A stretch of DNA of 64,000 nt from Candidatus Latescibacterota bacterium (GTDB lineage: Bacteria; Latescibacterota; UBA2968). The stretch's first letter is position 1. Every line of letters starts with the position of its first letter. Shown here in pieces: positions 6,998-55,157 of this stretch. The DNA lies in assembly GCA_965207885.1 (NCBI GenBank), contig OZ242311.1, forward strand, positions 2,688,001 through 2,752,000, read 5' to 3'. The notes under the pieces are model-generated. The model was given only the letters and a program-made list of their open reading frames with translations, was not told the origin of the DNA and made no database searches. The position numbers and the translations under genes were made by a program.

Positions 6998-7831
6998 CTA
7001 CCTGTCCAGTTTAACCCAATCGGGCCAAACGCTGGCAAAAAATGCTCGCTGAATGCCCCGTACGCTCTCTCCGCCGTCAACAACGAGATTGGAGCCTACG
7101 CTGAAGTTGCCGGCTTGCGAAGCGAGAAAGATGGCCAGGCCTGCGATGTTTTCCTTCTCTCCAACCCGTTTGCCTGGAATGCTCTTCTTCATCTCGTCTG
7201 TGTGATCCCGAGCCACCTTATTCAAATCGCTGGGAAAATCACCGGGGGAGATGGTATTGACTTGAATCCCTTCCCAGGCCAAACTATCACCTAAATGTCG
7301 GCCCAAATGGATCACACCTGCTTTGCTGGCTCCGTAGGCATAATTGTAAGCTGTGTTGAGTTTACCACAGCCGTCGATAGACGCGATATTGATCACATTG
7401 CACGGTGTTTCTGGCGAAGCCCCCACGCGCAGGAATGGCAGAAACGCTTGGGTCATAAAAAAGATGCTTTTGAGATTGAGGTCCATCACCGCGTCCCATG
7501 TTTCCTCCGTCACATCCTCGATCTCCCTGCGACCATCGCTGATTCCAGCGTTGTTGATCAAAATATCGAGCGAATGTTCTCGTTCACCGTAGGCCTTTGC
7601 CAGCGCCTTGATTCCGGAGACTGAATTTACATCGGCTGCGATATACTCGCAGGAGCCGATTTGTGCAAGTTCCTCTTGTTTCTTTTTTAGAACCTCTTCT
7701 CTGCGTGCGACAATGTAAACCTTCGCTCCAAAATTGACAAAGCCTTCGGCGATCATCGCTCCGATGCCGGTCGAACCACCAGTCACCAGTGCGGTTTTTC
7801 CCTCCAGTGAAAATAGATCTCTCATTTTCAT
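6998..7831 (-). CDS. Short-chain dehydrogenase/reductase (SDR)
   Basis: TGGSTGIG, NNAG, YGASK catalytic YxxxK. Confidence 0.9.
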   Translation of the reverse strand: MKMRDLFSLEGKTALVTGGSTGIGAMIAEGFVNFGAKVYIVARREEVLKKKQEELAQIGSCEYIAADVNSVSGIKALAKAYGEREHSLDILINNAGISDGRREIEDVTEETWDAVMDLNLKSIFFMTQAFLPFLRVGASPETPCNVINIASIDGCGKLNTAYNYAYGASKAGVIHLGRHLGDSLAWEGIQVNTISPGDFPSDLNKVARDHTDEMKKSIPGKRVGEKENIAGLAIFLASQAGNFSVGSNLVVDGGESVRGIQRAFFASVWPDWVKLDR

Positions 7832-32887: not shown

Positions 32888-33730
32888 TTAATTTTTGAGG
32901 TCAGCAGCGTCTTCAGCACTCCACTGTTCCCACATCAGCTCATCTGGTTGCATAAATCCACTATTGGCTCGCCGAAATACTTTTTCATCTTCTCCCAATA
33001 AACGCAGCAATCGACGATCTCCAGTCGCTCGCGCTCGCGCTTTGACAGCCTCAGAAATCGGCCCAGAATAATTGGCTCTGTGTTTGAGCCAGGAATGATT
33101 CATCGTTAAAAAGAAAAGATACCGATAGTTCTTTGAATAATTGGCTGTTCCCGAGTGTACAATCGCATTGTGGAATACGGCTATATCTCCAGATTTGGGA
33201 TAAAGGATCACTTCGTCGGGATGGGGTTGTTTTCTTTCTTCTTGTGTTAAAGTCAGGGCTTTCATGTGAGAACCTGGAATAATTCGCAGGGGGCCAATTT
33301 CATCATCGAGATCCTGTAAATAGCTCAGGGCATTGAAGAGTAAAGGTCTATGGTAGATGCCTTCTTGAGGAAACTCGGCAAACATGTCCCGGTGAAAACC
33401 CAGTACCGGGTTTGTGTTTGGGTCCTGTGGTGCCGTGCGCCGGTATGTGATGGATTCGAGTTGGACATGAGGTCCGACGATCATTTCAGCAAAGTCCAGG
33501 AGGCGCTTATTTGACAAGGCTGAGAGAATGAGATCGGGTTTGTGTTCTAACACATCGACAAAGACCTGGGGCCGGCTGCCATCGGGAGTGGGGATGCGAT
33601 CACCGATTTCTTCAAATGAATCCCGCATGGCTTTGACCCAGACATCGTCCAGCATCTTTGGGAAAAGTGTAAATCCAACTGTTTTGAATTCGTCAAGATG
33701 TTCCTGGAGAGATTTGATATCTTCTCGCAT
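32888..33730 (-). CDS. PhyH family dioxygenase
   Basis: FHRD, PLRIIPGSH, GDIA, VHSG. Confidence 0.85.
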   Translation of the reverse strand: MREDIKSLQEHLDEFKTVGFTLFPKMLDDVWVKAMRDSFEEIGDRIPTPDGSRPQVFVDVLEHKPDLILSALSNKRLLDFAEMIVGPHVQLESITYRRTAPQDPNTNPVLGFHRDMFAEFPQEGIYHRPLLFNALSYLQDLDDEIGPLRIIPGSHMKALTLTQEERKQPHPDEVILYPKSGDIAVFHNAIVHSGTANYSKNYRYLFFLTMNHSWLKHRANYSGPISEAVKARARATGDRRLLRLLGEDEKVFRRANSGFMQPDELMWEQWSAEDAADLKN

Positions 33731-37982: not shown

Positions 37983-38831
37983 TTATGATTTTTCCCGACG
38001 AGGCGTCACGCGCCAGTCGGTTCGCAGTTCGGCAACAAGGTCGGCGGGCGGCTGCATAAAACGCTTAACCCTTTCACTGGCTTTCGCTTGCAGTTCAGGC
38101 CCGGCCAATTCCCAGGCATTGCAGAACAGTCGCTCGCTTTTTGGAACAACGCGGATGTTCAGGGTGCGCCGGGGATCAGGCGTCTGATTTACGCCAGGGC
38201 AATGTAGCCCCCCCGCGTTTACAATGAGTAGATCACCCGGATCGCCAGTCGCCTGAATCTTGTTGCTGTCTGAATCCGGCTCGGGATCCATGATCTCGGG
38301 TTCATCGGCTTTAAAGCAATGGGTGCGCGGAATCACTTTTGTACCGCCATTTTTCTCTGAATAGCCGTCAAGTATAAAAAAGAACCACAGACCGTTGTGC
38401 ATACCTTCTTCCGTGAGGCCGGGTCTGAAGTCGCGATGGAAGCGTCCCTGCCGCGCATCCGGATGATAGCGCACAGTATTAGCAATGAGATCTAATAAAT
38501 AGTAAGTACCCATAGCACGTTCGCAGATCGCGTGAACGGTATCGTGGTCGAGAAGCTCTATGGCCGCTTCGCCCCACATATAACAGATGCGGGCATTTGG
38601 ATTGATTGTGAAGTTGCGTTTCCCGTTTCCATCGAGAATGCGCACTTCTGGCAACTTCATCCCCCCTCGCCACTCGGCGATGTAATCATCCGCAGCACGC
38701 TGGGCGATATCCCGAAGAGGGTCGAGATACCCGGGTGCGATTTGCTCCCGCAGGATGACATAACCGTTTTCTTGCAGGTCGGCTACGTGTGCGTCCAATT
38801 CCTCGTCGCTCATTGGATGGACTGGTTGCAT
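37983..38831 (-). CDS. PhyH family dioxygenase
   Basis: ENGYVIL, FHRD, NGGTKVIPRTH, GDLL, LHCPG. Confidence 0.8.
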   Translation of the reverse strand: MQPVHPMSDEELDAHVADLQENGYVILREQIAPGYLDPLRDIAQRAADDYIAEWRGGMKLPEVRILDGNGKRNFTINPNARICYMWGEAAIELLDHDTVHAICERAMGTYYLLDLIANTVRYHPDARQGRFHRDFRPGLTEEGMHNGLWFFFILDGYSEKNGGTKVIPRTHCFKADEPEIMDPEPDSDSNKIQATGDPGDLLIVNAGGLHCPGVNQTPDPRRTLNIRVVPKSERLFCNAWELAGPELQAKASERVKRFMQPPADLVAELRTDWRVTPRREKS

Positions 38832-38898
38832 AGGTTGACTCCTTTCCAGTCTCTGTAGATGTGTAACAGTTTTGTAGGCGAGTTGAAATGTTTGTCCT

Positions 38899-41409
38899 TC
38901 AGTCTTTTTTTAACTCGGGAATATTGTTCGGCATAAAAGATATCTCTCGCATACCTTCGTCGCCCAAAAACTGAATTGTAACACCACCACCTATGGATAG
39001 CATGTGCTGCAAATCCTCAATATTTCTCACCTTCGCATTGTCCACAGACAAAATTACAGTATCGCCCAATAACCCTACCTGAGCGGCTTCTGACTCTGCT
39101 GGAACATCAATTACCAAAACACCATCATTGTGCTCTAATTCCACAGCCCCAATCACCGCAGATTCCCTACCATAATTTACCAGACTACGCAAGGTCGCCC
39201 CCATCCAGTCATACAGATCAGCATTGACATAGGTGCCCCAAAACTCAGCGTTTTTATCAAACGCTTGCCCCAGACCAGACCAGATGCGCACGTCAGATTT
39301 GAACCTCGAATCTTGCACACCAAATTGATCCATAGGGAAATTTTCAAATCCGACCTCAGATCCAAATTTCGCCCGATAATCTCCAGATGATGGATTGTAA
39401 AAACCTGGATCACATGTTTTCGAATGCACGTCCAGACCCAACGCCCTGTGATCTTCCGGAGGCTCATAAACCGCAAACAGATTTTCATCCACCAAATTAT
39501 CTTCGCCCTGGCAACCCGCCATTCCCATTCCACGCGGTGAATAAGCTTCTCGACGAACAAGAATATTTCGCCGAACCACATCGCCGCTATTGGGATACCA
39601 AACGTGTGGGCTGAATAAGGTAGAAATATTGTTCTCTACAGTTCGAAAAAAGCCTTCACGCAACTTGATACCACCTTGCAAGCACAAATTGCCATAAATG
39701 TGATAATGCCCAGACCCATCGTCTAAATCAATATCGTATCCATGCGCACATTGAATCCGATTGTGGCGCAAAGCAATTGGATCGACACAATCCAGCTTCG
39801 CCATCGTGCGCATGCGGGCGAATTCTTCAGGTGTTGCCTCGCCCTTTAGCTTCATCCAGTACCGATCCCGTCCCCACGAATTATAAGCTCCGTGTTCTCG
39901 CGTGGTCATTGACGTATCAAAAATATCGTTCCATTCAATCACATGTCCACCCCAACATCCATCGTTCACATTGATCGCAGCACGCGGCACATCGTAAATA
40001 CTATTATGACTGACTGTAATCTCTTTGGCCTTAGAAATGAACACACCGGCAATCTGTTTCTCTACACTGCCCAACTGCGTCATCAAATTGTCGTGAATCA
40101 CACACCGGGCCGGATAATTATTGTTCTGAGGCCCTGCTTCTAAATCGACCAACTCCTGTCCTTCATCCAGCATTTCAGACGGCAACTTTGCCATACTCTC
40201 ATTCTCAAATGGCCTGCCATTTACCATCGGTGTTTCACCCCGCATACCTTCAGGCCACCCCCACCAATGTGCCCATCGCGACCTCACGGCAGAATTATTT
40301 CCCTCAAGTAAAACAGCACTCGCACCCGTCTTTACAAACCGACACCCGCTCACAGTGACGTCCCGACTATAATCTTGAATAAAAACCCCATTCCCACCTA
40401 TGCGCTCAAACGAGCAATTTTGAACGGTGCACAATTCAGCGCCTTCAAAAACAACAGCGCCTCCCCGATACACCTTCCAATCTCCACCACTTGGTATGAC
40501 ATCCGTTTCCATAAACGTGTAAGACGTATGGGTCAGTGTCAGCCCATCCAGAGTGATATAACAAACGGGGTTGTCCTCCGACCCTCGAAACTCAAACAAA
40601 TGCCTCAGCACCACAGCTTCCACTGTGGCATCGTCAAGAGTCTGTCCTTCTTCAGGCTTGAAATACAGTGTATGAGTTTCTCGATCTAAAAACCATTCTT
40701 TAGGCGCGTCCAATTCTTCAAACACGTTTTCAATAAACATCCGCCCTTCAGCCAACACATCATACGGATTGGTTCTTCGCCCACTGTTTTGCCACCCACC
40801 TTCTACCTTCCGATCCTTCTCGTACTCAAAGGTGTAAACCCCATCTGGATCTTTTTCCAAAATACGAAAGTGCAATGTACCCCACCCCATCGACATCATC
40901 CCGTGTACAAAAGCACCCACCGGATTGGCATATCCTTTTAAGCGCGCCGAATCAATGGCATCTTGAGAGGTCTCTGGCGAAACCCATCGAATGCTGCCAT
41001 CAAAAAACCCATCTCGCGGATCAGCATTTGGATAGCGACAGCGAACCATCTTTTCACCATTGATAAAAAGCTGATCAAAATCCAAGCCCTCAGGCACCTT
41101 AGCCTTCACCAGCCCATCTCCGGCGTTTTCCCAAATCAAGTTCACAGACTCTGCCCCACTAACAACAACCTCTTCGTCCTCATAAGCCCGATAAACAATG
41201 GGCGCATCTTTCGTCCCAGAATCTTCTGCACCAAAAATGAGCGTCTCGTTCAAATAGTAAGTTCCCTGTCTCAAACACACTGTTATCGGCCCGTTTTGTT
41301 TGCATGCACGAACAACCTCTTGCGCCCGTTTTAGCGTAGCAAGAGGTTGTTCTTCGGTGCCAGAATTTCTATCGTCACCTTTAGATGAAACAAAAAGCGT
41401 CTGCCCCAT
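38899..41409 (-). CDS. Right-handed beta-helix protein (GH141-like) with C-terminal PDZ-like domain
   Basis: FVSSKGDDRNSGTEEQPLATL start, beta-helix repeats, DIDLDDG, PDZ-like tail; start MGQTLF after aaggag. Confidence 0.65.
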   Translation of the reverse strand: MGQTLFVSSKGDDRNSGTEEQPLATLKRAQEVVRACKQNGPITVCLRQGTYYLNETLIFGAEDSGTKDAPIVYRAYEDEEVVVSGAESVNLIWENAGDGLVKAKVPEGLDFDQLFINGEKMVRCRYPNADPRDGFFDGSIRWVSPETSQDAIDSARLKGYANPVGAFVHGMMSMGWGTLHFRILEKDPDGVYTFEYEKDRKVEGGWQNSGRRTNPYDVLAEGRMFIENVFEELDAPKEWFLDRETHTLYFKPEEGQTLDDATVEAVVLRHLFEFRGSEDNPVCYITLDGLTLTHTSYTFMETDVIPSGGDWKVYRGGAVVFEGAELCTVQNCSFERIGGNGVFIQDYSRDVTVSGCRFVKTGASAVLLEGNNSAVRSRWAHWWGWPEGMRGETPMVNGRPFENESMAKLPSEMLDEGQELVDLEAGPQNNNYPARCVIHDNLMTQLGSVEKQIAGVFISKAKEITVSHNSIYDVPRAAINVNDGCWGGHVIEWNDIFDTSMTTREHGAYNSWGRDRYWMKLKGEATPEEFARMRTMAKLDCVDPIALRHNRIQCAHGYDIDLDDGSGHYHIYGNLCLQGGIKLREGFFRTVENNISTLFSPHVWYPNSGDVVRRNILVRREAYSPRGMGMAGCQGEDNLVDENLFAVYEPPEDHRALGLDVHSKTCDPGFYNPSSGDYRAKFGSEVGFENFPMDQFGVQDSRFKSDVRIWSGLGQAFDKNAEFWGTYVNADLYDWMGATLRSLVNYGRESAVIGAVELEHNDGVLVIDVPAESEAAQVGLLGDTVILSVDNAKVRNIEDLQHMLSIGGGVTIQFLGDEGMREISFMPNNIPELKKD

Positions 41410-41412
41410 AAA

Positions 41413-41580
41413 ATCACTCCTTATCATAACCTGTTTTTCGATCTCCATCGACTTCCTTAGACCAGGTCGCGTACAGTTCCCAGGCATTAATGCTTTTCAT
41501 CTCTTATCCTGTCTCTGTGGATGTGTAAAAGGGCTGATCACGATATTCGGGTAGGAACCGCTGTTGTTATCACCCATCAT
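41413..41580 (-). pseudogene. Mosaic spacer of four gene/leader remnants
   Basis: MMGDNNSGSYPNIVI start; 22/25 match to 38845-38869; 17/18 match to 47631-47648; 30/34 match to 47655-47688. Confidence 0.75.
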
Positions 41581-42887
41581 CACGATCCTTTCGCCCGTTG
41601 AAACCAGTCAATGAGTTGGCTTTTAAGATCGTTATAAATCTCAGGATATTGACTGGCCAAATCATTGGCTTCGCCAATATCCTGATCGAGCTTGTACAAT
41701 TCAAATTGCAATTCTTCAATAGCCGGAATAGCCTCGGCAAATTGCCCGCGATGATTAGGGCCTGTACCAACCAGTTTCCAATCGTCTTTTACCGCTCCCA
41801 TTTTCCCAAACAAATCCCAAAACACATACCGTCCTGGCAAATCTTCTTGCCCATGTGATCTCAAATGCGCAAGCAAACTCACTCCATGAACTGGATGCTG
41901 TCCATTCATTTTGGGAATCTCAATGCCAGCCGCATCCAGCACAGTGGCAAACAAATCAAAATGCACAGCACCTGCATCAGATACCATCCCTTTGGGAATA
42001 ACACCCGGCCACTGCATCACCGCAGGCACGCGGATTCCACCTTCATATGTCATTCCTTTTTGCCCGCGTAAAGGGCCATTATTGCCCGGAAATTTATCAA
42101 TCATTGCACCATTATCGCTCAAGTAGATGACAAGTGTGTTATCTACGATAGCCAACTCATGCAATGTCGCCATGATTTTACCCACACCATCATCCATATG
42201 ATCCAGCACCGCACAATAGTCGCGCTTGGGGAACTCAATACCGCGATCTTCATACTTTTTTAACCACTCGGCTTTGCCCGATGTTTTGGGTGCCTGTTCT
42301 CGCCACAAGGGACCATGCACAGCATTGTAAGGCACATAACAAAAAAACGGCTTATCACGATGTTTCCGAATAAAGTCAATCGCATAACCAGTAAACACAT
42401 CCGTCAAATGATCTTCATGCACCATGGGCTGGTCATTGTGCAAAAGGCGACTACCATCAAAAGGCCAATAGGGGTGTGCACCACCCAAAAATCCGACAAA
42501 TTCTTCAAAACCGCGTTCATTGGGCACATTGGGTGCATCATATCCCAAATGCCACTTGCCAAACATGCCAGTTTTATATCCTGCTTCCTTCAAAAACTCG
42601 GGCAAAAGTTTTACATCATCATGAATGCGCCTTGGCAACGTATCTGTTTTCTGCCCCGGCAGTGATGGGCCACGCCACATGCCGCATTCCAAAGAATACT
42701 GCCCAGAAAAAAGAGATGCACGCGTTGGCGCACAAAGTGGATTGACCCTAAACTGTGTAAAACGCACCCCATTTTTTGCAATCGCATCCATCGTTGGTGT
42801 ATCGACCTCTGTATCCCAATAACAACCCGCATCTCCATACCCCTGATCGTCTGTAACAATGATGAGAAAATTTGGTTTTGTGGCCAT
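41580..42887 (-). CDS. Sulfatase (Cys-type) with chimeric 5' end
   Basis: PNFLIIVTDD, CAPTR, GKWHLG; 42841-42895 is 54/55 identical to 48988-49042. Confidence 0.9.
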   Translation of the reverse strand: MATKPNFLIIVTDDQGYGDAGCYWDTEVDTPTMDAIAKNGVRFTQFRVNPLCAPTRASLFSGQYSLECGMWRGPSLPGQKTDTLPRRIHDDVKLLPEFLKEAGYKTGMFGKWHLGYDAPNVPNERGFEEFVGFLGGAHPYWPFDGSRLLHNDQPMVHEDHLTDVFTGYAIDFIRKHRDKPFFCYVPYNAVHGPLWREQAPKTSGKAEWLKKYEDRGIEFPKRDYCAVLDHMDDGVGKIMATLHELAIVDNTLVIYLSDNGAMIDKFPGNNGPLRGQKGMTYEGGIRVPAVMQWPGVIPKGMVSDAGAVHFDLFATVLDAAGIEIPKMNGQHPVHGVSLLAHLRSHGQEDLPGRYVFWDLFGKMGAVKDDWKLVGTGPNHRGQFAEAIPAIEELQFELYKLDQDIGEANDLASQYPEIYNDLKSQLIDWFQRAKGS

Positions 42888-42892
42888 AATGA

Positions 42893-43339
42893 TCATTCCT
42901 TGAGTGCGGCAGCATCCTCAGCGATCCACTTCGATCCAGTCGTGCCACTCGCCGGTCCGGTTGTCTTCGGTGTTGTGTACCACATCCCAGCCGTGTAGTC
43001 CGGGTACGGGTAGTATTCTGAGTCAAAGGGATAGAAATGGATCTTGCCAAACGCGCCGGTTCGCCACCCGGCCATCTGCAATGTCTTCATAAAGGTGGGG
43101 ATGTCGGGATTGAGTCGGTAGCCATTGGAGAGCAGACCGTGGCCTCGGCTGGTGAGTCCCGTGGCAATGCCCGCCCGAGCCGGACAGCAGACCGGGTTGT
43201 TGGAAAATGCATTGGTGAAGGTTACGCCCATGCTCTGGAGGCGTTTCAGGTTCGGCAGGTCGCAGATGCCGTTCAGGGCCGCTTCCAGCCACTTCGCCCC
43301 CATCTGATCGATGATGTTGGGTTTGTTTTGTGACTGCAT
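42893..43339 (-). pseudogene. Collapsed sulfatase-sulfatase-PhyH pseudogene
   Basis: First 8 codons match the gene starting at 37020, the body matches the 5' part of the gene starting at 35357 with deletions, and the tail WIAEDAAALKE* resembles WSAEDAADLKN* ending at 32888. Confidence 0.9.
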
Positions 43340-43401
43340 AATGACTCCCCTGATGCGCTCTTTGAGCTTTTTAGTCGATAATCTTTGTTTCTACAGTCAT
43401 T

Positions 43402-44748
43402 TTATTTTTCGAAAATTGTCCCGGGCCACGGGTAAGCGTTGGATCCAGCCTCATCCTCGATGGGGCCTTCCGGCAGTGTGGCTTGCCAATCCATGACCTG
43501 CTCTGACATCTGCTTGACCAGGGTCTCTTCAAATTTGGCGTGATTGACGAGTTCCATTGGATCTGCAGGAATGTTGTAAAGTTCGACACGACTTCTGTCC
43601 GGGTTGAGAAGCAGCTTCCAGTCACCCTCGCGGATTGAAAGGATCGGGCTTTTGTGAAGGCAATGGCCGTGAACCCGAAATCGCCACTCCCACATCAACG
43701 GCGTCGTGCGATCTACCGAGTTACCTCGAAAGGCGGCTGTCATATTCTCGCCCTGCAGACCAATGTTGTCGGGAATGTCCACGCCAGCGATGGAACAAAA
43801 AGTAGGTAACAGGTCTATGGCACATAAGGGCGTCGTGTTGTCAACTTTGCCTTTTGGTCCGCCACTGCCTGGCCACCGAAGAATGAAAGGGGTTCGCACA
43901 CCGCCTTCGTAGAGGCTTCTTTTACGACCTCGAAAGGGACCAGAAGAACCGACGCCACTGTGTGACGCATTTCGGACGTGGATATCCTCAGGGCCGTTAT
44001 CAGCTGAGAAGATGACAATCGTGTTGTCGGAAAGGCCCAGTTGATCCAGCCGATCCATGAGCCGTCCAATGTGGTAATCTGCGTTGGTAACGACAGAATA
44101 GTAGATGCGTAGTGCACCTTTGTGTTTGTCTTCCAGGCCCTGAGCGGTAAGATTCATATAGGGTTCCATCTGCTCCTCTGTAGGATCCAGAGTGGCGTGG
44201 GTGTCAAGCAACCACGCTTGAACAAAGAAAGGCTCATCTTGATGTCTTTCGATGAAAGATATGGTTTCATCTATAATTACCTCTGTAGATTGAGATCTGC
44301 CTTCGGGAATCTCAATGGGGGGTCCGACCGCATTGAATGTTTTGGATTCGTCAATTCCATAAGCCGTGGTATTAGGTGCTTCTTCGCCACTTCCCAGGTG
44401 CCACTTGCCAAAGTGGCCAACAGCATATCCACTTTGTTGCAGGAGATCCGTGATGGTCGTTGCATCGGGATCCAACCAATCTGGCATGCCGCGTAGGGCG
44501 TTCTGCTCGTGACGGGCAAAATGGCCATGTATGCCCCAGTGGGCAGGAAATCGACCCGTCATGACCGCTGCCCGGCTGGGTGAGCACACACCCGAGCAAA
44601 CATAGAATTGTGAGAAGAGAATGCCCTGCGAAGCGAGCCGATCCAGATTTGGCGTTTTTACAAACTGGTGGCCGTAGCAACTCAAGTCACCCCACCCCCA
44701 ATCGTCGGCGAAGACAAATACGATATTGGGTCTTTTCGATTCAGCCAT
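43402..44748 (-). CDS. Sulfatase (Cys-type, arylsulfatase-like)
   Basis: PNIVFVFADD, CSPSR, GKWHLG, DNG. Confidence 0.9.
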   Translation of the reverse strand: MAESKRPNIVFVFADDWGWGDLSCYGHQFVKTPNLDRLASQGILFSQFYVCSGVCSPSRAAVMTGRFPAHWGIHGHFARHEQNALRGMPDWLDPDATTITDLLQQSGYAVGHFGKWHLGSGEEAPNTTAYGIDESKTFNAVGPPIEIPEGRSQSTEVIIDETISFIERHQDEPFFVQAWLLDTHATLDPTEEQMEPYMNLTAQGLEDKHKGALRIYYSVVTNADYHIGRLMDRLDQLGLSDNTIVIFSADNGPEDIHVRNASHSGVGSSGPFRGRKRSLYEGGVRTPFILRWPGSGGPKGKVDNTTPLCAIDLLPTFCSIAGVDIPDNIGLQGENMTAAFRGNSVDRTTPLMWEWRFRVHGHCLHKSPILSIREGDWKLLLNPDRSRVELYNIPADPMELVNHAKFEETLVKQMSEQVMDWQATLPEGPIEDEAGSNAYPWPGTIFEK

Positions 44749-44788: not shown

Positions 44789-46129
44789 CTACGATGCCAG
44801 GGCTTTCAGGTAGGTGGCGCCTTGCGTGTCGGCGTGTGCCTGGACCCAATCAGATAGTCGGTTTCGGTGATCCGTCAGGATCTGAATGAATTCAGGATCA
44901 TTGGCGAGGTTCTTTGTTTCAGTGGGATCCGAAACCATATCGACAAGCATTTCTTCCGACGTGCCATCGTAGTGGAAGATGGAGTACTTGTACCTGGCAG
45001 ACCTTACCATTCTACCGCCAACAGTTTCGGCAACGACGAATTCCCGCCAATCGGGTTGCTCGCCCAGAGCAAGGGGTTTCAAGCTTCTACCGGGTAGTGA
45101 ATCTGGAATTTCTCCTTTGGCAAAGTCGCATAACGTCGGAAGCAGATCGATCCCATTATTGACCAAAGCATCGATCTGACCTGGAGAAACTCTTCCAGGC
45201 CAACTGATCGTGAGCGGTACGTGTGACGACGCTTCGTAGAACGACCGCTTCATTGTCAATCCGTGTTCCCCATCATGATCGCCATGGTCACTTGTAAATA
45301 TGACAACCGTACTCTCCCGCAGACCGGTGTCATCGAGCGCATCCAGTATCACACCCAACTGTTGGTCCAGGTCCTCCATATAAAAACGGTAAGCCGCACG
45401 GTAGGTCCGCCACTCGTGTTCGGTCCAGTGGATTGCACGCTGACCGAATCTTCGGTTGAGGCCGATTTCGATTGTCTCCTCGTCTCCCAGTGTCCCATCA
45501 CGGAATCTCTGCATCCACTTTGGCTCATCCTGAGGGGGTGCGTGATTATCCGGCAAGGGAGGCAAGTTGTCTCCTGGATCCGAAGGATGTGTCGGCTTCC
45601 CATCCTCATCCAGGACTTTACATATATCGTGTGGATTAATGAACGATGCCCAGAGGAAGAACGGGCGATCGGAATCTCTGTTTTTGAGAAAATTAGCAGA
45701 TCTCTCCGCAAGCTCATCCCTCTGATCGGTTGTGAGCGACTCAAATCCGAATTCCTCTGCCTTTTCTTTTGTGAAAACCTGGGTGCCCTCTACGTGCAGC
45801 TTACCGCCGGCGTACGTATCATATCCACAATTTCGGAGGAGTGTCCCCATCAATGGCGTATCAATATGGTCCAAAATCCGCGGATGTTCCGAAGCCATCC
45901 CCTTGGAGTTATGCTCCAGGCCATCAAAAGTGTGCGGCATATGGCCTGAGACCAGGGCGTACCTGAATGGGACACAAACTGGATTGGAAACGTAGGTGAG
46001 CTCGAATCTCTTACCACCTGCAGCCAGTTTATCCAAATTGGGCGTACTGACATAAGGGTCACCGGAATAGCTCGCCATTCTGTGATGTTGTTGGTCCGTT
46101 GTTATGAGAATGATATGCGGTCGTTCCAT
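44789..46129 (-). CDS. Sulfatase (Cys-type, choline-sulfatase-like)
   Basis: PHIILITTDQ, CVPFR, GKLH, SDHG; start MERPH after aaagga. Confidence 0.85.
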   Translation of the reverse strand: MERPHIILITTDQQHHRMASYSGDPYVSTPNLDKLAAGGKRFELTYVSNPVCVPFRYALVSGHMPHTFDGLEHNSKGMASEHPRILDHIDTPLMGTLLRNCGYDTYAGGKLHVEGTQVFTKEKAEEFGFESLTTDQRDELAERSANFLKNRDSDRPFFLWASFINPHDICKVLDEDGKPTHPSDPGDNLPPLPDNHAPPQDEPKWMQRFRDGTLGDEETIEIGLNRRFGQRAIHWTEHEWRTYRAAYRFYMEDLDQQLGVILDALDDTGLRESTVVIFTSDHGDHDGEHGLTMKRSFYEASSHVPLTISWPGRVSPGQIDALVNNGIDLLPTLCDFAKGEIPDSLPGRSLKPLALGEQPDWREFVVAETVGGRMVRSARYKYSIFHYDGTSEEMLVDMVSDPTETKNLANDPEFIQILTDHRNRLSDWVQAHADTQGATYLKALAS

Positions 46130-46169
46130 ATCTGTTCCTTTCGCGTTGCGGACGAATTGTAGCAAGATG

Positions 46170-47642
46170 TCAACGAGGATCGCCAGCTTCAATTGTTCGT
46201 TCCAGCAGCCTGCTGCGCATTGCTTCTTCCCGATCTCGATAATCCGGATTTCCTGCCAGATTCACCAGTTCGCCCGGGTCGTTCTGCAAGTCGTAAAGTT
46301 CAGAACGATCATTCACATAATGTGCGTATTTCCACTTCTCGTTTCGAACCATGCGACCCCGAGAAAGGAAGAACGTTCCCGACTCAACCAGCGGCAATTC
46401 AGGTACGGGCTCCGTCCGACTTATGCCGGCTTTCAGCGCGTCCAGTTCTGCTTCTGGTCCTCCCTCTGGCAATGGCTGACGGCTGCCAACTTCCGCATAG
46501 GTACAGTCTCTTTCTGGAGCCATACCCGACATCATATCTGTCACACTTCTACCCTGAACACCCGACGGGATCGAGATTCCGCTACTCTGGAGTAATGTGG
46601 GCATCAAGTCGATTTGCTCAATTTGCAGTGCGTTTGTTGCACCATCCCGTGCATGTTCCAAACCCCTTACGATCAATGGGACCTGGACAATGCAGTCGTA
46701 GAATGCAGCAGTTTTCCTAATGAGTCCGTGTTCGCCCAGGTACTCACCGTGGTCACCTGTGGCAACAATGATGGTGTCGTCCCAACGACCAAGCGCTTTT
46801 AGTCCATCAAAGAATTTGCCCAGGCAGTCATCCAGGTGCCTGAGCATGCCGTAGTAATACGCCATTGTCTGGCGCAGTTGCTCGTCATCCATGAGATGCA
46901 GCCACCCGCCGTGATAATAGACTTGCTGAACGAATGGTTTTGAGTCCAATTCACCCTCAGGTCTATGTGGGAGAGGCATGTCCTCTGGCCTGTACATCGT
47001 GGCAAAAGGTTCGGGAGCTCGATAGGGCGGATGAACATCGGAAAAGCTCAACCACACAAACGAGGGCTCGACACCCTTCCGTTCGAGATAATCGAGGGCA
47101 TGATTCACGTTGGCTCTTGCTGGAGATTCAGCAGGATCGAAAGGGTAGGTTCCGCCATACCAGATTGGGTTTGGGTGATCTCCCCAACGGAAACGTCTTG
47201 TTTGTGATTCGAACACGGATGGGTCGATGGGTATTGCAGGCCCAGGAAATGGCTTCCCATAGGCTTCTCGCTGCTTTTGCCGAAGTGGTGACTCTTCAAT
47301 ACACGCTTCAAATCCTGCAGTTTCGGCATCTGGAAAACAGTGGTTTTTCCCAAATAGGCCACAGCCGACACCAGCATCTTTCAATAGCCCTGGCAGGTGA
47401 AATCCTTCCTTTTCTTGCATCAACAGCGTGTTGTCTCTGGAACCTGTAACGCTGGGATAACGACCCGTGAAAAATGCGACCCGTGATGCGACGCAGAGCG
47501 GAGAAGGTACGGTGCAGTTTTCAAACCTGATGGCTTCGCTGGCAAAGCGATCCAGATGAGGTGTCGCTCCGACGGGATTGCCATAGCATCCCAATGCGCG
47601 AGCGGCAAGATGCTCAATGGTGATTACGACAATGTTTTTCAT
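46170..47642 (-). CDS. Sulfatase-like hydrolase
   Basis: NIVVITIE, CVASR, GKNH, GDHGE. Confidence 0.85.
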   Translation of the reverse strand: MKNIVVITIEHLAARALGCYGNPVGATPHLDRFASEAIRFENCTVPSPLCVASRVAFFTGRYPSVTGSRDNTLLMQEKEGFHLPGLLKDAGVGCGLFGKNHCFPDAETAGFEACIEESPLRQKQREAYGKPFPGPAIPIDPSVFESQTRRFRWGDHPNPIWYGGTYPFDPAESPARANVNHALDYLERKGVEPSFVWLSFSDVHPPYRAPEPFATMYRPEDMPLPHRPEGELDSKPFVQQVYYHGGWLHLMDDEQLRQTMAYYYGMLRHLDDCLGKFFDGLKALGRWDDTIIVATGDHGEYLGEHGLIRKTAAFYDCIVQVPLIVRGLEHARDGATNALQIEQIDLMPTLLQSSGISIPSGVQGRSVTDMMSGMAPERDCTYAEVGSRQPLPEGGPEAELDALKAGISRTEPVPELPLVESGTFFLSRGRMVRNEKWKYAHYVNDRSELYDLQNDPGELVNLAGNPDYRDREEAMRSRLLERTIEAGDPR

Positions 47643-47645
47643 CTC

Positions 47646-49034
47646 TTAGCTCCTATCAACTTCCTCAGACCAGGCCGCGTACAGATCCTGCAGGCGTTCC
47701 ACGACTTCGGGATGCTGATCAATCAGATCTTGACTCTCGGAGGGATCTTCCTTCAGGTTAAACAGGCAGGTATTCTGGAGAAGCTCTGTGCGTTCAACGA
47801 TCCCATCGCAGGACGGCTCTTGACCTCTCCTGCCACCTTTATGCAACAGTTTCCAATCACCAGAGCGCACGGCATAACTATCGCCCCAGCGCCAGAAGAG
47901 GTCTCGCTGGTCTGCGATTTTTGTGACATCTTTTGGGATGGGTTGACCATCCAATCCTTCGGATAACTCGATGCCTGCTGCCTGTAAACAGGTCGGAAGA
48001 ATATCGAGCGTTGAGATCGTCCTGTCACAGATCGTTCCAGATGCCGACTCATTTGGACGGGCGAGGATAAATGGCACGTGAATTCCGCCCTCCCAGAGCG
48101 TAAACTTGCTCCCGGCAAGCGGCAGGTTGCAGGCACCGGTGTTCGGTGCGCCTCCGTTGTCTGAAAACATGATCACGATGGTGTTGTCGGCAAGCGATAG
48201 CTGATCCAACGTGTCCAGAAGGCGACCGATATTGTCGTCGAGGCAATTCAGGTTCGCCAGATAGTATCTGCGAAACTCGTCGGCATTGATCTCGCCGAGG
48301 ATTCTATACCTTTTGAACCAGTCCCCATACCCGCCCATGGTCTCCGGGTCGTAGTTTGGAATCTCCCTTACGCCGTGCTTGTCGAGGTATCGTTTGGGCA
48401 CCTGGTGGATCAGGTGATGCACGGAGTTGTAAGAGAGTGTCACAAAGAAAGGTTCTTCCTGATGGCTCTCGAGAAAATCGATTGTCGCGTCGGTGAAGAT
48501 TTCCGTCAGATACCCTTGCCCAAATTCTTTGTAATCCCGGTTGTGCATGAGCGGCCCAACAACCGCGCTGTGCCCTTTTGGATCGGGCGTGCGGTCTTCG
48601 ATGTCTTTGGTGAGGAGGAAATAGTCGTGGCCATGTGCTGAGAATCCGAGAAACTCGTCATAGCCATGGTTCAACGGATATTCGTGAGCCTCGTGATCGT
48701 GAAAGCCCAGGCCGTAATCGTTCTTACCGAAACGCGCTGTGGTATAGCCGTTAGCCTTCATGATTTCGGTGATGTTCTTTTCTGTTTCAGGATGTCCGCA
48801 AAAAAAGGAAGATTTCGGATCCCAACGCACCTGGTGTCTCCCCGTATTCCATCCGGCGCGGGAAGGGCTGCATACAGGAGCTGTCACATAGGCCTGTGAA
48901 AAGAGAACGCCGCGCTCAGCGAGCCGGTCCATGTTTGGCGTTTGCACGTCTGGCGCATGATGACTGAATGCAGTCAGATCGCCGTAGCCCTGATCGTCTG
49001 TAACAATGATGAGAAAATTTGGTTTTGTGCCCAT
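47646..49034 (-). CDS. Sulfatase (Cys-type)
   Basis: PNFLIIVTDD, CSPSR, GKND, SDNG. Confidence 0.9.
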   Translation of the reverse strand: MGTKPNFLIIVTDDQGYGDLTAFSHHAPDVQTPNMDRLAERGVLFSQAYVTAPVCSPSRAGWNTGRHQVRWDPKSSFFCGHPETEKNITEIMKANGYTTARFGKNDYGLGFHDHEAHEYPLNHGYDEFLGFSAHGHDYFLLTKDIEDRTPDPKGHSAVVGPLMHNRDYKEFGQGYLTEIFTDATIDFLESHQEEPFFVTLSYNSVHHLIHQVPKRYLDKHGVREIPNYDPETMGGYGDWFKRYRILGEINADEFRRYYLANLNCLDDNIGRLLDTLDQLSLADNTIVIMFSDNGGAPNTGACNLPLAGSKFTLWEGGIHVPFILARPNESASGTICDRTISTLDILPTCLQAAGIELSEGLDGQPIPKDVTKIADQRDLFWRWGDSYAVRSGDWKLLHKGGRRGQEPSCDGIVERTELLQNTCLFNLKEDPSESQDLIDQHPEVVERLQDLYAAWSEEVDRS

Positions 49035-49063
49035 AATGATCACCCGCTCCAATCCCCGCATTG

Positions 49064-50545
49064 TTACCTGTCAGCCCCGCCGAGAAGCTGCTCTCTGGTC
49101 ATTACCTTGATTGGTGGCAGGTTATCGACCATTCCCGCGTCCGTGCGTCGAAGCTCATCAATGGTCCCTTGCCGAAGTTGGGTGAGCAACTCGTGGTGAT
49201 CGGATTCCAAAGCGAGGTTTTCCAGTTCCTCGGGGTCATTCTCGAGATCGTACATCTCTTCGATCTCCCCGGGGACGAGCCAGCGGATATATTTGTACTT
49301 TCCCATGCACAGAGATACCCACCAGGGGATAGGCGGATTGCCTATTGGCTCGCCACAGCCGACATCGGTATCTTCTCCAAAATAATGACCCGTACACTCC
49401 ATCAGCAGCGGGCGATCCCATTCAGCGTTGGGATCGGAGAGCAATAGTGTCAGGTCCTCCCCGTGCATCTTCCAGGGTTGTTTCATGCCGATCAACGAGA
49501 GAAAGGTAGGCGGGATATCCTGGCCGCCGATTGGCACATCGCATACTGTGCCTGCAGGAATCCGTCCCGGCAGCCGCATGATCATCGGTGCTTTGATATT
49601 GGCATCATAGGGCGCCACCTTGAGTCGAAAGCCGTGCTGTCCCCAGGCAAATCCCTGGTCCGACGTAAAGACGACCAGGGTATCATCCAATTGCCCCATC
49701 TCCTCTATGGTGCCGATCACCCTGCCAACCCCTTCATCCAGGGCGCACACGCCCCGGTTGTATTGTTGTTCCCAATCGGTGAGGGTCCGTCCATCCCGGA
49801 TGCCTACCGGTTGGCCGTGATCTCCCTCGCGCCAAACACCGTAGTCCCGCATATGTGTCGCCTTGGTCGGGCGCGGCGGATAGATGTCTTCTGGCGTGGG
49901 GACCTGGGAAACATCTGGATAGTCCTGGAGATGGCGGTCAGCCACTTTCCAGGGGCCGTGTACTGCGTCATAGCACAGCCAGAGGTGCCAGGGCTTATCC
50001 GGTTCTTCTGCCCGTCCGCGGAGAAATTCAAGTGCATACTCCGTGTAGTTATCGGTAGAATAGCCGCCAACCGGTTCCGGCTCCCTCCCGTTGATACTCA
50101 TATTCTGATTGACATAATAGGGCCCGTATTTCTCGGGTTGGCTGTGGTCCCAGATGGCAGAAAAATCCCAGTACCGACCGTGACCGTGATCGGGACCTGT
50201 GTGCCATTTGCCGACGATGCCTGTGTACCAACCGTTCTCGCGGAGATTCTCGAGCCAGTACGGACACTGGTCTGGATCGCGGACATAGTTTGGGTAGCTC
50301 GAGGGCAGGTGCATGCTCATCACGCCATGCGGCAATTTTCCGGTCAGGTACGTGGCGCGTGAAGGCGCACACCAGGCACTGGTATAGCAGTTGGAAAAAC
50401 GCATCCCCTCATGGGCGAGACGATCGATGTTTGGCGTACTGATCCACGAATGCGCCTCGGGGTAGCAACTCACAGACCGAAAGCTCTGATCGTCGGTGAA
50501 GATGTATAAAATGTTGCTCGGACGGTTCAATTGATCATCGTTCAT
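49064..50545 (-). CDS. Sulfatase (Cys-type)
   Basis: NILYIFTDD, CAPSR, GKWH, SDQG. Confidence 0.9.
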   Translation of the reverse strand: MNDDQLNRPSNILYIFTDDQSFRSVSCYPEAHSWISTPNIDRLAHEGMRFSNCYTSAWCAPSRATYLTGKLPHGVMSMHLPSSYPNYVRDPDQCPYWLENLRENGWYTGIVGKWHTGPDHGHGRYWDFSAIWDHSQPEKYGPYYVNQNMSINGREPEPVGGYSTDNYTEYALEFLRGRAEEPDKPWHLWLCYDAVHGPWKVADRHLQDYPDVSQVPTPEDIYPPRPTKATHMRDYGVWREGDHGQPVGIRDGRTLTDWEQQYNRGVCALDEGVGRVIGTIEEMGQLDDTLVVFTSDQGFAWGQHGFRLKVAPYDANIKAPMIMRLPGRIPAGTVCDVPIGGQDIPPTFLSLIGMKQPWKMHGEDLTLLLSDPNAEWDRPLLMECTGHYFGEDTDVGCGEPIGNPPIPWWVSLCMGKYKYIRWLVPGEIEEMYDLENDPEELENLALESDHHELLTQLRQGTIDELRRTDAGMVDNLPPIKVMTREQLLGGADR

Positions 50546-50637: not shown

Positions 50638-51705
50638 TTAGACCTCAGAGCCTGCAACAGTGCGAACGGCCTCGCTCCAGTCATCCCAAAGCCCCGGACC
50701 TTCCGCGCGTGGTTCAGGAGGCGGGACGGCCGGCCCAAGTTCAAGTTCGTGGAGTTTTCTCACGTTGGGCGGTGGCGATGGTCGTGGCCCTTTGACATAA
50801 CGGCCGTTGTATGTTCTGTCATATACAGACTTTTTGTAGGCATCATAAAGAATCATCTGTCGAATCTGCGGAGGGTTGCTGTAGTTCCGCGTTGCCGAGT
50901 GGAACATTCGTCCGTGCCACAAGACCACATCTCCCTCGTCACCAAAAAACTCAAAGGGCTCAATATTGGCGAGTGCGTCCTTGAGACCTGGGGGCTGCGG
51001 CAAAACAAATGCCGCAGCGCCGCTTTCCGGATGGGGCGAATGTAGAATTGAATAGCGAGCGAGATCTACAGAGTCCGGCTCTGCTTCGTAGAGCAAGCGA
51101 TGACTGCCGGGAAAAAGGGCGATGCCACCTCCACCCTTGGGAACCTGGTCAACGTATGCGCTCGCCACCAGATGCACCGGCTCGGGATCAATGTGTGCAC
51201 CGGCACGGACGGCATCCGCCAGAGCAGGTGAGTCGCTCTTACGCTCTCTCGGCAGCACGCAATACATACCGCGCAACTCCTTGCCACCCCAGACCGGCCA
51301 ACCACGCAACCGACTTCCACGCGGATCCGGATCGGCCGCAGAGGAAGTTACCTCTGGTATCACAACTTCACCTTTGCCGAGGAGTTGCTCAAACCAGGGG
51401 AATACGCGGCGTGGAAGCAAGTTGATCAGGTCCTCGTCGCCGGAGAGTTCACGCAGTCGCCAGCCGTGGTCACCGGTGCGATCATTCATGCCATCAGAGG
51501 TGCTTTGACGATCTGCCTCCGGGAGACCGTTTAGCCAGGTTTGAGGATCGTCTCGGCGCAAATGACTTGAGGTGTTTCCCGCCCACAGCCTGTCCCTCGC
51601 TGCAGCACAAAGTTTGGGGTCGAGGATCTTTCGTTTCACAAGGAATCCGTTCGTAATAAATTGTTGGATCTCTTCTGTACTCAGTGCTGCCAATGCTGTA
51701 TTCAT
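50638..51705 (-). CDS. PhyH-like dioxygenase
   Basis: NGFLV, AHID, FPGSH, GDVVLWH, FHSA. Confidence 0.75.
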   Translation of the reverse strand: MNTALAALSTEEIQQFITNGFLVKRKILDPKLCAAARDRLWAGNTSSHLRRDDPQTWLNGLPEADRQSTSDGMNDRTGDHGWRLRELSGDEDLINLLPRRVFPWFEQLLGKGEVVIPEVTSSAADPDPRGSRLRGWPVWGGKELRGMYCVLPRERKSDSPALADAVRAGAHIDPEPVHLVASAYVDQVPKGGGGIALFPGSHRLLYEAEPDSVDLARYSILHSPHPESGAAAFVLPQPPGLKDALANIEPFEFFGDEGDVVLWHGRMFHSATRNYSNPPQIRQMILYDAYKKSVYDRTYNGRYVKGPRPSPPPNVRKLHELELGPAVPPPEPRAEGPGLWDDWSEAVRTVAGSEV

Positions 51706-51722
51706 GGAAATAACCCTTCTTT

Positions 51723-51791
51723 CTTCAATACTGAACCATTGTACGGACTTCAATACCGAACCATTGTACAAAAAAAAGAGTTGGATTTCAA
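51723..51791 (-). promoter_or_regulatory. Sigma70 promoter heading the 51705->30268 run, with tandem duplication of the -10 region
   Basis: TTGAAA-17-TACAAT (51763-51791); 22-nt direct repeat at 51723-51744 and 51748-51769. Confidence 0.65.
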
Positions 51792-53518: not shown

Positions 53519-53590
53519 AGCTATAATCAGAAATCCCAAAAACACGTTTGTCTTTGGCATAGACACAGTCTTTCTCCGCCACAGCAAGCT

Positions 53591-53640
53591 GTCGGTGGCG
53601 AGCAACAGTATGTTTGGGGTGCTCACACGCTATCTCCTGA
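53591..53640 (-). pseudogene. 5'-end remnant of a sulfatase
   Basis: RBS caggag, then GTG at 53626 reading MSTPNILLLATD, the canonical sulfatase N-terminus; the sulfatase-like sequence stops there. Confidence 0.7.
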
Positions 53641-53687: not shown

Positions 53688-55157
53688 TCAGCGTTTCACC
53701 TGGGTATAGGGGCTTGAAATATACTGCTTGTAGCCGTTAACCTCTCGTCCATGATTGCTGAAGAAATCGATCTGAGAAAACCCATCCTTTAACGGTATGG
53801 CTGCCGTCCATACGCCAGTCTTTGCATCATATTCCATCTCCATCCATTGGTCTGCAGGGATTTGCTCGTGCAAGAAGGGGGCGGAACCTGCCGGAGCGCG
53901 GTCGTAGATCCACCATATACGTCCGTTTATCGGCTGAGGTCCTTCATTAAAACGCACGCTGACACTTAGTTTGTCCTTGGAGATTTTATAATTTGACTTC
54001 GGAGGCTGTAGCAAGGGCTCGCCACCAAAGAAGTGATGCCAGAGGAAGGCGTTGCGATTCTGTTCGTCCTTTGCCGTAGCGACATGCGGCGTTTGTGAGT
54101 GCCCGCCACTGGGTTCGTAATAGACAGGCAACTGGGGATGGTTTTGCGCGCCCCAAGGAACGTCAAATGCAACATAGTCATGTGTTCCCGGCTGGAAAAG
54201 AATATCGACGCCTCGCTCTTTTAGCCGATCCCAATTCTCTGTCACACACAATCTGCTAAGAATGCAATCTGCCAGGTGGTGTATTTCGTCCCAGGATCTT
54301 CCCGCTTTCAACGCAAGTTCATGCAGACTCCTCTTTGATCCCACCATAACGCCTTGATACCATTTGGCGCGTTTTTGATCCAGGTCGATATCGCCGGCCT
54401 TTACAGCCTCAAAGAATGCTTTGTTTGCCGCTCGCACGTTATCCATCTCTTCCTTGTCAAATCTTCGAGTCGGCGAATAGTAAGCAAAGGCTCTATCGGA
54501 ACATGTCGCGGTAAAACGCTCGTCATTAATCAAGGCGGTAGCAGGCGATATGCCGTTCTTGGAGCTGCCTGAGCCAGCCACTTTGCCTTTTTCAAAATGA
54601 TCGGTTTCCGCATACGCGGCGGTTACAGCCCGCATTAAAGTCATCGACCAAATCCAGACCGTCGTGTAACGCGGATTCAGGTCTTTCAGAAACAATTGCC
54701 CCATTTTTTGTTCCAGGCCTTGTTTGCCCGGAATCTGCCTCAGCGCCTTGACGTGCGTCTTAACGATGCCAACGCCACCTGCCAGCAGTTTTGCTTGAAA
54801 GGCGGTTGGGCGCGAGTCCTTCATCAGCGTCTCATATGGATTTGCTCCGGTAACACTAAAGCCCTTCGCCTTGCCTTCGAGCGGCACAATCAGGCGCACT
54901 GGAATCCGATAATCTTGTCCAGGCCACCATTCGGCGACGTTGATTTCGATTAGCTTCTGTCGCGTCGAGCCTGTCACCTCATCTACATGCCAGTCCTTCA
55001 ACGTCTTTATATCCAGCGTGCTTTCGTCAAGAATCTCTTCGGTATTGAACATGTCGCAATTCATACCAGAATCCTTCTCGGAATCGGCAGCAAACGCTAC
55101 GGAAATCGTAAAAGTCGCGAGAATAACCAGCGATGCCATTATTCTAATTCTATCCAT
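53688..55157 (-). CDS. Secreted alpha/beta-hydrolase-like protein (PqaA-like)
   Basis: Signal peptide; GSSKNG nucleophile-elbow-like motif, GTHD, GGH. Confidence 0.5.
   Translation of the reverse strand: MDRIRIMASLVILATFTISVAFAADSEKDSGMNCDMFNTEEILDESTLDIKTLKDWHVDEVTGSTRQKLIEINVAEWWPGQDYRIPVRLIVPLEGKAKGFSVTGANPYETLMKDSRPTAFQAKLLAGGVGIVKTHVKALRQIPGKQGLEQKMGQLFLKDLNPRYTTVWIWSMTLMRAVTAAYAETDHFEKGKVAGSGSSKNGISPATALINDERFTATCSDRAFAYYSPTRRFDKEEMDNVRAANKAFFEAVKAGDIDLDQKRAKWYQGVMVGSKRSLHELALKAGRSWDEIHHLADCILSRLCVTENWDRLKERGVDILFQPGTHDYVAFDVPWGAQNHPQLPVYYEPSGGHSQTPHVATAKDEQNRNAFLWHHFFGGEPLLQPPKSNYKISKDKLSVSVRFNEGPQPINGRIWWIYDRAPAGSAPFLHEQIPADQWMEMEYDAKTGVWTAAIPLKDGFSQIDFFSNHGREVNGYKQYISSPYTQVKR

Follow-up and report, generated by a model that had tools for sequence, protein, structure and literature searches.

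Arrays of paralogous genes are known to grow and shrink by tandem amplification and reduction through unequal crossing-over, and neighboring genes in operons can be coupled translationally by overlapping stop and start codons (ATGA, TGATG). Remnants of genes that decay in intergenic spacers are likewise established in bacteria, for example in the spacers described for Buchnera (PMC3164680), and genomes of Latescibacteria rich in sulfatase genes have been described (PMC4454575); a search of the literature on sulfatase arrays, tandem duplication and pseudogenes found nothing on scars of the kind reported here. The subject of this analysis is the spacer of ~170 bases between a sulfatase gene (S6) and a gene for a right-handed beta-helix protein, in a window (the whole stretch of DNA analyzed) of 64,000 nucleotides from a Candidatus Latescibacterota bacterium. 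We consider it probable, at roughly 0.8, that this spacer is a compound rearrangement scar without a gene of its own, left by duplication and deletion in a fast-changing sulfatase array.

How does the spacer compare with the systems that resemble it most? Like the Buchnera spacers, as that account presents them, it looks like a gap of former-gene leftovers that deletions have cut to what the neighbors need. It differs from them in lying in a genome of free-living type, within a large paralogue array that expands and contracts, where the Buchnera of that account is a reduced symbiont, and in that its remnants come from recent segmental duplicates and that relatives with 98% identity in the beta-helix protein show different stages. 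Extra copies of segments, a hybrid S7/S8 pseudogene, and novel joints in which late sequence runs into early sequence are features in common with arrays that evolve by unequal crossing-over, but most joints here bring the start of one gene together with the end of another, and because these positions are non-homologous they point to illegitimate or microhomology events and not to RecA-type crossovers. Integron cassettes are similar in that blocks of one or two genes are reordered among the relatives, a boundary recurs and a short direct repeat surrounds one block; they differ in that no integrase family occurs in the 48 open reading frames (ORFs) scanned in the window (five of them without a family), no attC-like imperfect inverted repeat is found, and the boundaries fall within coding sequence, so that genes are left truncated. 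The intact genes of the array are linked much as translationally coupled genes are (S2 to S3 by 3 nt), whereas the ORFs that would be coupled in the spacer are putative chimeras of gene fragments with 27 and 28 codons.

The genes around the spacer are all on the minus strand in a tight operon, and in transcription order they and the features to which we refer are the following:

50638..51771, minus strand: PhyH gene, the first of the operon genes listed here
49064..50545, minus strand: sulfatase S1
47646..49061, minus strand: sulfatase S2
47631..47690, minus strand: intact junction of the S2 end and the S3 start, the reference for the S3-start and S2-end pieces of the spacer
46170..47642, minus strand: sulfatase S3
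44789..46192, minus strand: sulfatase S4
43402..44748, minus strand: sulfatase S5
42893..43339, minus strand: pseudogene (148-aa sulfatase fragment) whose 5' end is S7-like and whose body is S8-like, with the final 12 codons of a PhyH gene fused to it
41580..42896, minus strand: S6, an intact family S1 sulfatase gene of 438 aa (Pfam PF00884, E=3.3e-58, profile matched over its full length)
38899..41409, minus strand: downstream gene for an 836-aa right-handed beta-helix protein (Pfam PF13229)
37983..38831, minus strand: PhyH gene downstream of the beta-helix gene

The last of these is followed by an aldo-keto reductase gene, sulfatases S7 and S8 and another PhyH gene, and sulfatases interleaved with PhyH-type dioxygenases in this way make up an unusual operon whose products are apparently cytoplasmic. 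Elsewhere the window contains further genes for sulfatases, PhyH dioxygenases, enolase-superfamily proteins and oxidoreductases, as well as an RND efflux system. Between 33786 and 63538 most of the array sulfatases start within 2-10 residues of their domain, too close for a signal peptide to fit.

Relatives of the locus were collected by scanning the beta-helix protein against species-representative genomes, which gave 79 loci. Three of these, L001, L002 and L003, are Candidatus Latescibacterota MAG chromosomes with 98% amino acid identity in the beta-helix protein (the next locus has 61%), and conservation among the three sets the beta-helix start at the ATG at 41409-41407. An earlier note on this DNA had recognized the spacer as a mosaic of four pieces and placed it at 41413..41580; the spacer is real, and with this start codon its bounds become 41410-41579. 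Its parts (all coordinates and pieces are given for the minus strand) are as follows:

41536..41580, minus strand: relic 1, 15 codons (MMGDNNSGSYPNIVI) that are the putative start of a lost sulfatase-like gene X and are coupled to S6 by TGATG
41497..41580, minus strand: mini-ORF 1, 27 codons plus TGA, which starts on the S6 stop and whose own stop overlaps the mini-ORF 2 ATG (ATGA)
41501..41531, minus strand: leader that contains a Shine-Dalgarno-like AGGA and matches 38869-38839, upstream of PhyH gene 37983..38831, at 26/31 positions
41489..41506, minus strand: S3' start, in which TAAGAG is followed by codons 1-4 (MKSI) of an S3-like sulfatase gene; 17/18 identical to 47648-47631
41414..41500, minus strand: mini-ORF 2, 28 codons plus TGA (MKSINAWELYATWSKEVDGDRKTGYDKE), the S3' start fused in frame to the S2' end
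41446..41488, minus strand: S2'-like end, in which an S2-type sulfatase is read in frame over its final ~15 codons (…ELYATWSKEVD)
41432..41445, minus strand: probably a second S3 start (S3'') in degraded form, with GAGATCGAAAAACA where the S2-S3 junction has GAGATGAAAAACA
41410..41431, minus strand: the beta-helix gene's own leader, with the ribosome binding site (RBS) AAGGAG at 41422-41417

The matches that define these pieces stand up to re-examination, with one change of length. A sulfatase-like start coupled to S6 through TGATG had been proposed, and the S6 TGA (41582-41580) does overlap an ATG (41580-41578) that opens a 27-codon ORF beginning with relic 1 (full translation MMGDNNSGSYPNIVISPFTHPQRQDKR). 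The leader match was found as claimed (41507-41531 against 38845-38869, 22/25) and extends to the 26/31 given above (41531-41501 against 38869-38839); its 18-nt core has E=0.038 in blastn-short, and a search for this 18-mer with up to 3 mismatches finds 3 sites where 0.04 are expected, namely the spacer's own, 38849-38866 (1 mismatch) and 33548-33565 (3 mismatches). The S3-start match (41489-41506 against 47631-47648) is 17/18 and alone also has E=0.038. For the S2-end match the 30/34 reported at 41447-41480 is correct and the piece is longer, reaching from 41488 to 41446; its 26-nt core scores 36.2 bits (E=1.6e-4). These three (E=0.038, 0.038 and 1.6e-4) are the spacer's three best matches to the rest of the window, and the fourth-best is a 12-mer with E=0.59.

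Could such matches have arisen by chance, from a general likeness of the signals at gene starts and gene ends? We made 500 dinucleotide shuffles of the sequence 41413-41580 and scored their best matches to the window in the same way; 31 gave a best match of at least 28.2 bits, so that the leader and the S3 start, individually weak at E=0.038, each need support from outside the window; relic 1, moreover, has no DNA match at all. Against this, none of the 500 shuffles reached 36.2 bits with its best match or 28.2 bits with its second-best, so the matches are jointly beyond chance, and the leader and S3-start matches are weak singly and not jointly. The relatives supply the outside support: the S3 start runs on for 141 nt in L001 (below), and the S2'-like end can be aligned with the S2 end in each of the four genomes, most closely with that of L002 (43 nt, 88%, E=3.7e-8), and in blastx has 8/11 residues identical to the S2 C-terminus (E=0.012). 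Chance resemblance is thus refuted for the leader, S3-start and S2-end pieces, and as an account of the spacer we give it virtually no weight.

In L003 the arrangement of S6, spacer and beta-helix gene is the same and the spacer is 172/173 identical to that of the window; the presence of the same spacer in this independent assembly shows that it is not an assembly artefact. L001 has S6, relic 1 and the leader 92/94 identical to the window up to 41489. Beyond this point it reads MKNIVVITIEHLAARALGCYGNP and continues for 141 nt (~45 codons) of S3-like sequence, 97% identical to S3. Since the L001 copy runs on into these ~45 codons, the 18-nt piece of the window is the truncated start of an S3-like gene behind its own leader. 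L001 keeps the ~45 S3' codons downstream of S6; an intact X, S3' or S2' at the place of the spacer was found in none of the three close loci, nor was the intact ancestral order (S6-X-S3'-...-S2'-S3''-beta-helix) found among the three. With the window spacer L002 has in common only the ~19 bases that directly precede the beta-helix ATG, which indicates another breakpoint there. The beta-helix gene is preceded by S5 in L001 and by a PhyH gene in L002. Immediately upstream of it AAGGAGTGATTTT is common to all four genomes, and TATGATAAGGAGTGATTTT is present in the window, L003 and L002 only, L002 having a different gene as its upstream neighbor. A candidate remnant of the S6 start in L002 was rejected (the homology passes the PhyH stop by only 2 nt). 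The internal boundaries of the mosaic (~41489 and ~41431) coincide with synteny breaks in the relatives, and with L001 and L002 breaking at the edges of pieces these boundaries are true rearrangement breakpoints; the proposal that the spacer records several successive events is borne out.

The reversed order of two pieces is real: the S2'-like end begins directly after the fourth S3' codon (at 41488), so that the joint has the S3 start and then the S2 end, opposite to the order at the intact S2-S3 junction. In terms of the reference order the joint reads downstream sequence followed by upstream sequence, as a tandem duplication leaves it. An 8-nt deletion took out the S2' stop, and GAGATCGAAAAACA (41445-41432) then follows. 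In an anchored test 34/20000 shuffles score as high against the S3 start, for a piece of only 14 nt; AAAAACAGGT also resembles the L001 spacer upstream of the beta-helix gene, which makes the assignment ambiguous. Tentatively, then, the native order of S2 end and S3 start probably also survives, in degraded form, right after the "permuted" joint. The pieces can be read collinearly as X start / leader and S3' start / S2' end and S3'' start / beta-helix leader, the S3'' assignment being tentative.

Relic 1 differs from the other pieces in the kind of support it has. Fourteen matches to PN[IVF][IVL][IVLF] occur in the six-frame translation of the window, nine of them at the N-termini of ORFs with Pfam sulfatase matches and one in relic 1, where PNIVI occupies residues 11-15, a position typical of sulfatase N-termini. 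It is kept in L001 and L003. A five-residue motif and its position thus suggest that relic 1 is the start of a lost sulfatase-like gene X; PNIVI is all that survives of a PF00884 domain, which leaves no domain to score. No donor came to light: in local alignments of DNA against the 5' ends of 11 sulfatase ORFs in the window and against the 42893-43339 fragment, no match went beyond 9-13 nt, tblastn over the window and the 79 loci (1.375 Mb) returned, among the matches listed, only the relic and its L001 and L003 copies with the others at E of at least 0.63, and blastx against 12 window sulfatases gave E of at least 1.3. The resemblance of "ERIVMMG" to the S2 N-terminus was set aside as protein-level only, without DNA support.

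A structured RNA leader (riboswitch or attenuator) was considered for the spacer and rejected: Rfam gave no matches at E of 1 or below over 38700-41800, no terminator-like site was found, promoter-like matches were on the plus strand only and at chance level, and the spacer folds no better than its shuffles (z-score -0.79).

How could such a sequence have come about? Homology to the termini of paralogues, with the gene interiors missing and only ORFs of 27 and 28 codons left, is what remnants of pseudogenes look like, and we infer the following order of events. More genes would once have stood between S6 and the beta-helix gene: the sulfatase X, an S3-like gene behind its own leader, and one or more extra S2-S3 pairs that arose by segmental duplication. 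Successive illegitimate joins would then have removed these former genes. One such join would have left 15 codons of X in front of the leader, and another would have fused the four codons of the S3' start, in frame, to the final ~15 codons of S2'. Small indels would have degraded the S2'/S3'' junction, and everything else as far as the beta-helix leader would have been deleted. What was kept would be what the neighbors need, namely the S6 stop and the beta-helix RBS. A start joined to the end of the gene that lies upstream in the reference implies that a second S2-type copy stood downstream of an S3-type copy, that is, a duplicated array. The S3'/S2' joint itself could mark a deletion from one copy into another, or it could be the novel joint of a tandem duplication that subsequently lost its second copy (no second full copy of the duplicated segment is present in the spacer, where only the degraded 14-nt S3'' start follows). 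Both options fall under the "tandemly duplicated" half of the earlier note's suggestion of a circular or tandemly duplicated intermediate, and the present data fit either. A duplicated array is required and can be seen independently (below); a circle is not needed, since a deletion or tandem joint suffices.

That independent evidence is as follows: Two S3 starts are present in each of L001, L003 and the window; L001 has a full S5 and a second S5 end; and the PhyH gene that stands after S8 recurs upstream of S6 in all four genomes, as a second copy or as its final 12 codons. In the pseudogene at 42893-43339 the 5' end is identical to S7 and the body is 91% identical to S8, with a 12-nt deletion right after PNII, a frameshift, a microhomology (TGGATCG) at the S8'/PhyHc' joint, and ATGA coupling to S6. 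The whole interval from S5 to the beta-helix gene thus consists of remnants of second copies (MR_MLE, S7, S8, PhyHc, S2, S3) of modules that are intact elsewhere in the array. The parts common to the four genomes are 93-99.6% identical, and their gene content varies, with AAA_14/DUF4143, enolase-type, S4, S5 and S6 genes each present or absent. Concerning the spacer between S5 and the pseudogene (43340-43407), we note that it is 93-97% homologous to the MR_MLE-S7 spacer of L002 and L003; the join there falls on stop codons (AAATAA), and the spacer is the tail spacer of an enolase-superfamily (MR_MLE) gene. That gene lies just upstream of S7 in L002 and L003 and is absent between the aldo-keto reductase gene and S7 in the window and L001.

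Joints of a start with an end are not confined to this spacer. In L001, S3 (4 codons) is joined in frame to the last 150 nt of S5, S3' (~45 codons) is joined out of frame to the end of S4, and a PhyHb' start of 6 codons is joined to the S5 RBS; L003 has a collinear four-piece S4/S5 relic. Such "start/end" scars lie next door in all four genomes, and the scar type is common in the array. One breakpoint recurs, S3 being broken after exactly the fourth codon at two different junctions (L001 4742-4753 and window 41500-41489), where the four S3 codons have the S2-like end as partner in the window and L003 and the S5 end in L001. In addition, the 18-nt S3 start occurs as a direct repeat (4738-4752 and 7184-7198) on either side of a 2446-nt block of L001 (4754-7199). 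This block comprises the S5 end, PhyH, S6, relic 1 and leader, and in the window and L003 it occupies a different position in the array. The recurrent break is not what random deletions would lead one to expect; a hot spot in DNA conserved among the sulfatase paralogues, selection to keep initiation regions, or coincidence (~10 joints are known) are each possible reasons for it.

Do these regularities call for a more specific mechanism than duplication and deletion? If the S3 start TAAGAGATGAAAAxCATT, or the first codons of these genes generally, were a preferred recombination site, blocks of one to three genes could be excised, copied and re-inserted at the 18-nt S3 start like cassettes, without a recognizable integrase or attC, and the spacer would be the footprint of cassette-like exchanges and not of random deletions. 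Besides the recurrent breakpoint and the direct repeat around the L001 block, this reading accords with the position of other joints 4-22 codons from a start (X at 15 codons, the S7/S8 switch of the pseudogene at NKPN together with its 12-nt deletion behind PNII, the 22 S2-like codons with which S6 begins, and the PhyHb' of L001 at 6 codons). It also accords with the S6 block, which at 41489-42930 is 99.6% identical over 1442 nt to L001 5758-7199 while the flanking array genes are 93-98% identical, and which this comparison suggests was recently exchanged between the lineages. However, no recombinase, hairpin or conserved site structure was found, the right-hand partners of the joints have no common motif, and the N-terminal PNIxxI/DD stretch is the one stretch conserved among the paralogues, where homeologous crossovers are expected anyway; the sample, moreover, is ~10 joints in four genomes. 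We regard a dedicated joining site as improbable, and the recurrent break after the fourth S3 codon is the sole element of the locus that could lead to something new. Less probable still is the excision of an array segment as a circle that joined S3 start to S2 end and was re-integrated upstream of the beta-helix gene. The S3-start and S2-end order is indeed a circular permutation of the intact junction, and the L001 block between 18-nt S3-start repeats is what crossover integration of a circle would give, but a deletion or tandem-duplication joint yields the same order, the native S2-end and S3-start order stands directly next to it in the spacer (tentatively, as above), and recombinase and transposase families number zero among the same 48 scanned ORFs (again counting the five without a family). 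Eighteen nucleotides are also very short for homologous integration. Nor are there inverted repeats at the junctions: none was found at the S2-S3 junction, the sole pair in the spacer region is of 9 nt, one arm lying on the S6 stop and the second within S6, the L001 joint has only a short palindrome inside the S2 end, and the search for inverted and direct repeats at the joints gave nothing useful. An insertion sequence or transposon is likewise absent from L001 4754-7199, which holds only the S5 end, PhyH, S6 and relics and no transposase. The 382-aa AAA_14/DUF4143 ORF was considered as a transposase and discarded, that family not being a transposase family.

A different possibility, compatible with an origin of the spacer as a scar, is that the mini-ORFs are now kept by selection to relay ribosomes from S6 to the beta-helix gene, or as leader peptides. 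The two mini-ORFs chain the two genes without a break by TGATG, ATGA and a 4-nt gap between the mini-ORF 2 TGA and the beta-helix ATG, and we infer from this sequence a possible role in translational coupling; the S3'/S2' fusion is in frame, as is S3/S5 in L001, and the only substitution between the window and L003 (ACC to ACT) is synonymous in mini-ORF 2. Against these points, mini-ORF 1 would end ~10 nt or less from the next ATG in any of the three frames, so such a chain is cheap to obtain by chance, two fusions would both be in frame by accident with a probability of ~1/9, one substitution is uninformative on constraint, and the same beta-helix gene stands behind quite different spacers in L001 and L002. 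In-frame fusions were also dismissed as evidence of selection in their own right, being too few, with the pseudogene at 42893-43339 frameshifted and the L001 S3'/S4 joint out of frame. A selected function is accordingly doubtful, though it has a better claim than either the joining site or the circle.

As a scar of duplication and deletion, the spacer is of modest biological weight, a well-resolved instance of an ordinary and known type of feature. With three near-identical relatives it affords a base-resolution view of how a sulfatase operon of an uncultured phylum gains and loses genes, by a route that would consist of segmental duplication and then illegitimate deletions that shrink dead genes to "start/end" stubs, and such scars can be used as markers of strain-level structural variation. 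It also bears on annotation: the longest beta-helix ORF (38899-41487, with its start at 41487) is an artefact of the scar, and automatic calls may add 26 spurious residues to the protein; the two mini-ORFs and the 148-aa sulfatase fragment are best treated as remnants and not as genes.

Several smaller observations were made in the array. The first ~64 nt of S6 are 94% identical to S2 (42832-42895 against 48978-49042, with a core of 45/46), and past the first window only 17-42% of the columns match per 40-column window of the two proteins; the two 5' ends look like a recent gene-conversion or recombination tract. The gap after the ORF 53688..55157 contains, at ~53560-53620 on the minus strand, VSTPNILLLATDSLLW, which weakly resembles the relic of a sulfatase N-terminus (blastx E ~2). 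In L001 (7394-8542) and L002 (6503-7651), S4 and S5 have between them a gene for a 382-aa AAA_14/DUF4143 ATPase, which is not present in the window or L003. The spacer between the beta-helix gene and the downstream PhyH gene (38839-38885) has ~43 nt including the leader motif in the window and 14 nt in L001-L003; the leader copy at 38839-38869 is thus specific to the window, and divergence from the three relatives sets in directly after AAACATT. The PhyH protein encoded at 37983..38831 is 87-88% identical to its counterparts, and its neighbors are 96-98% identical to theirs.
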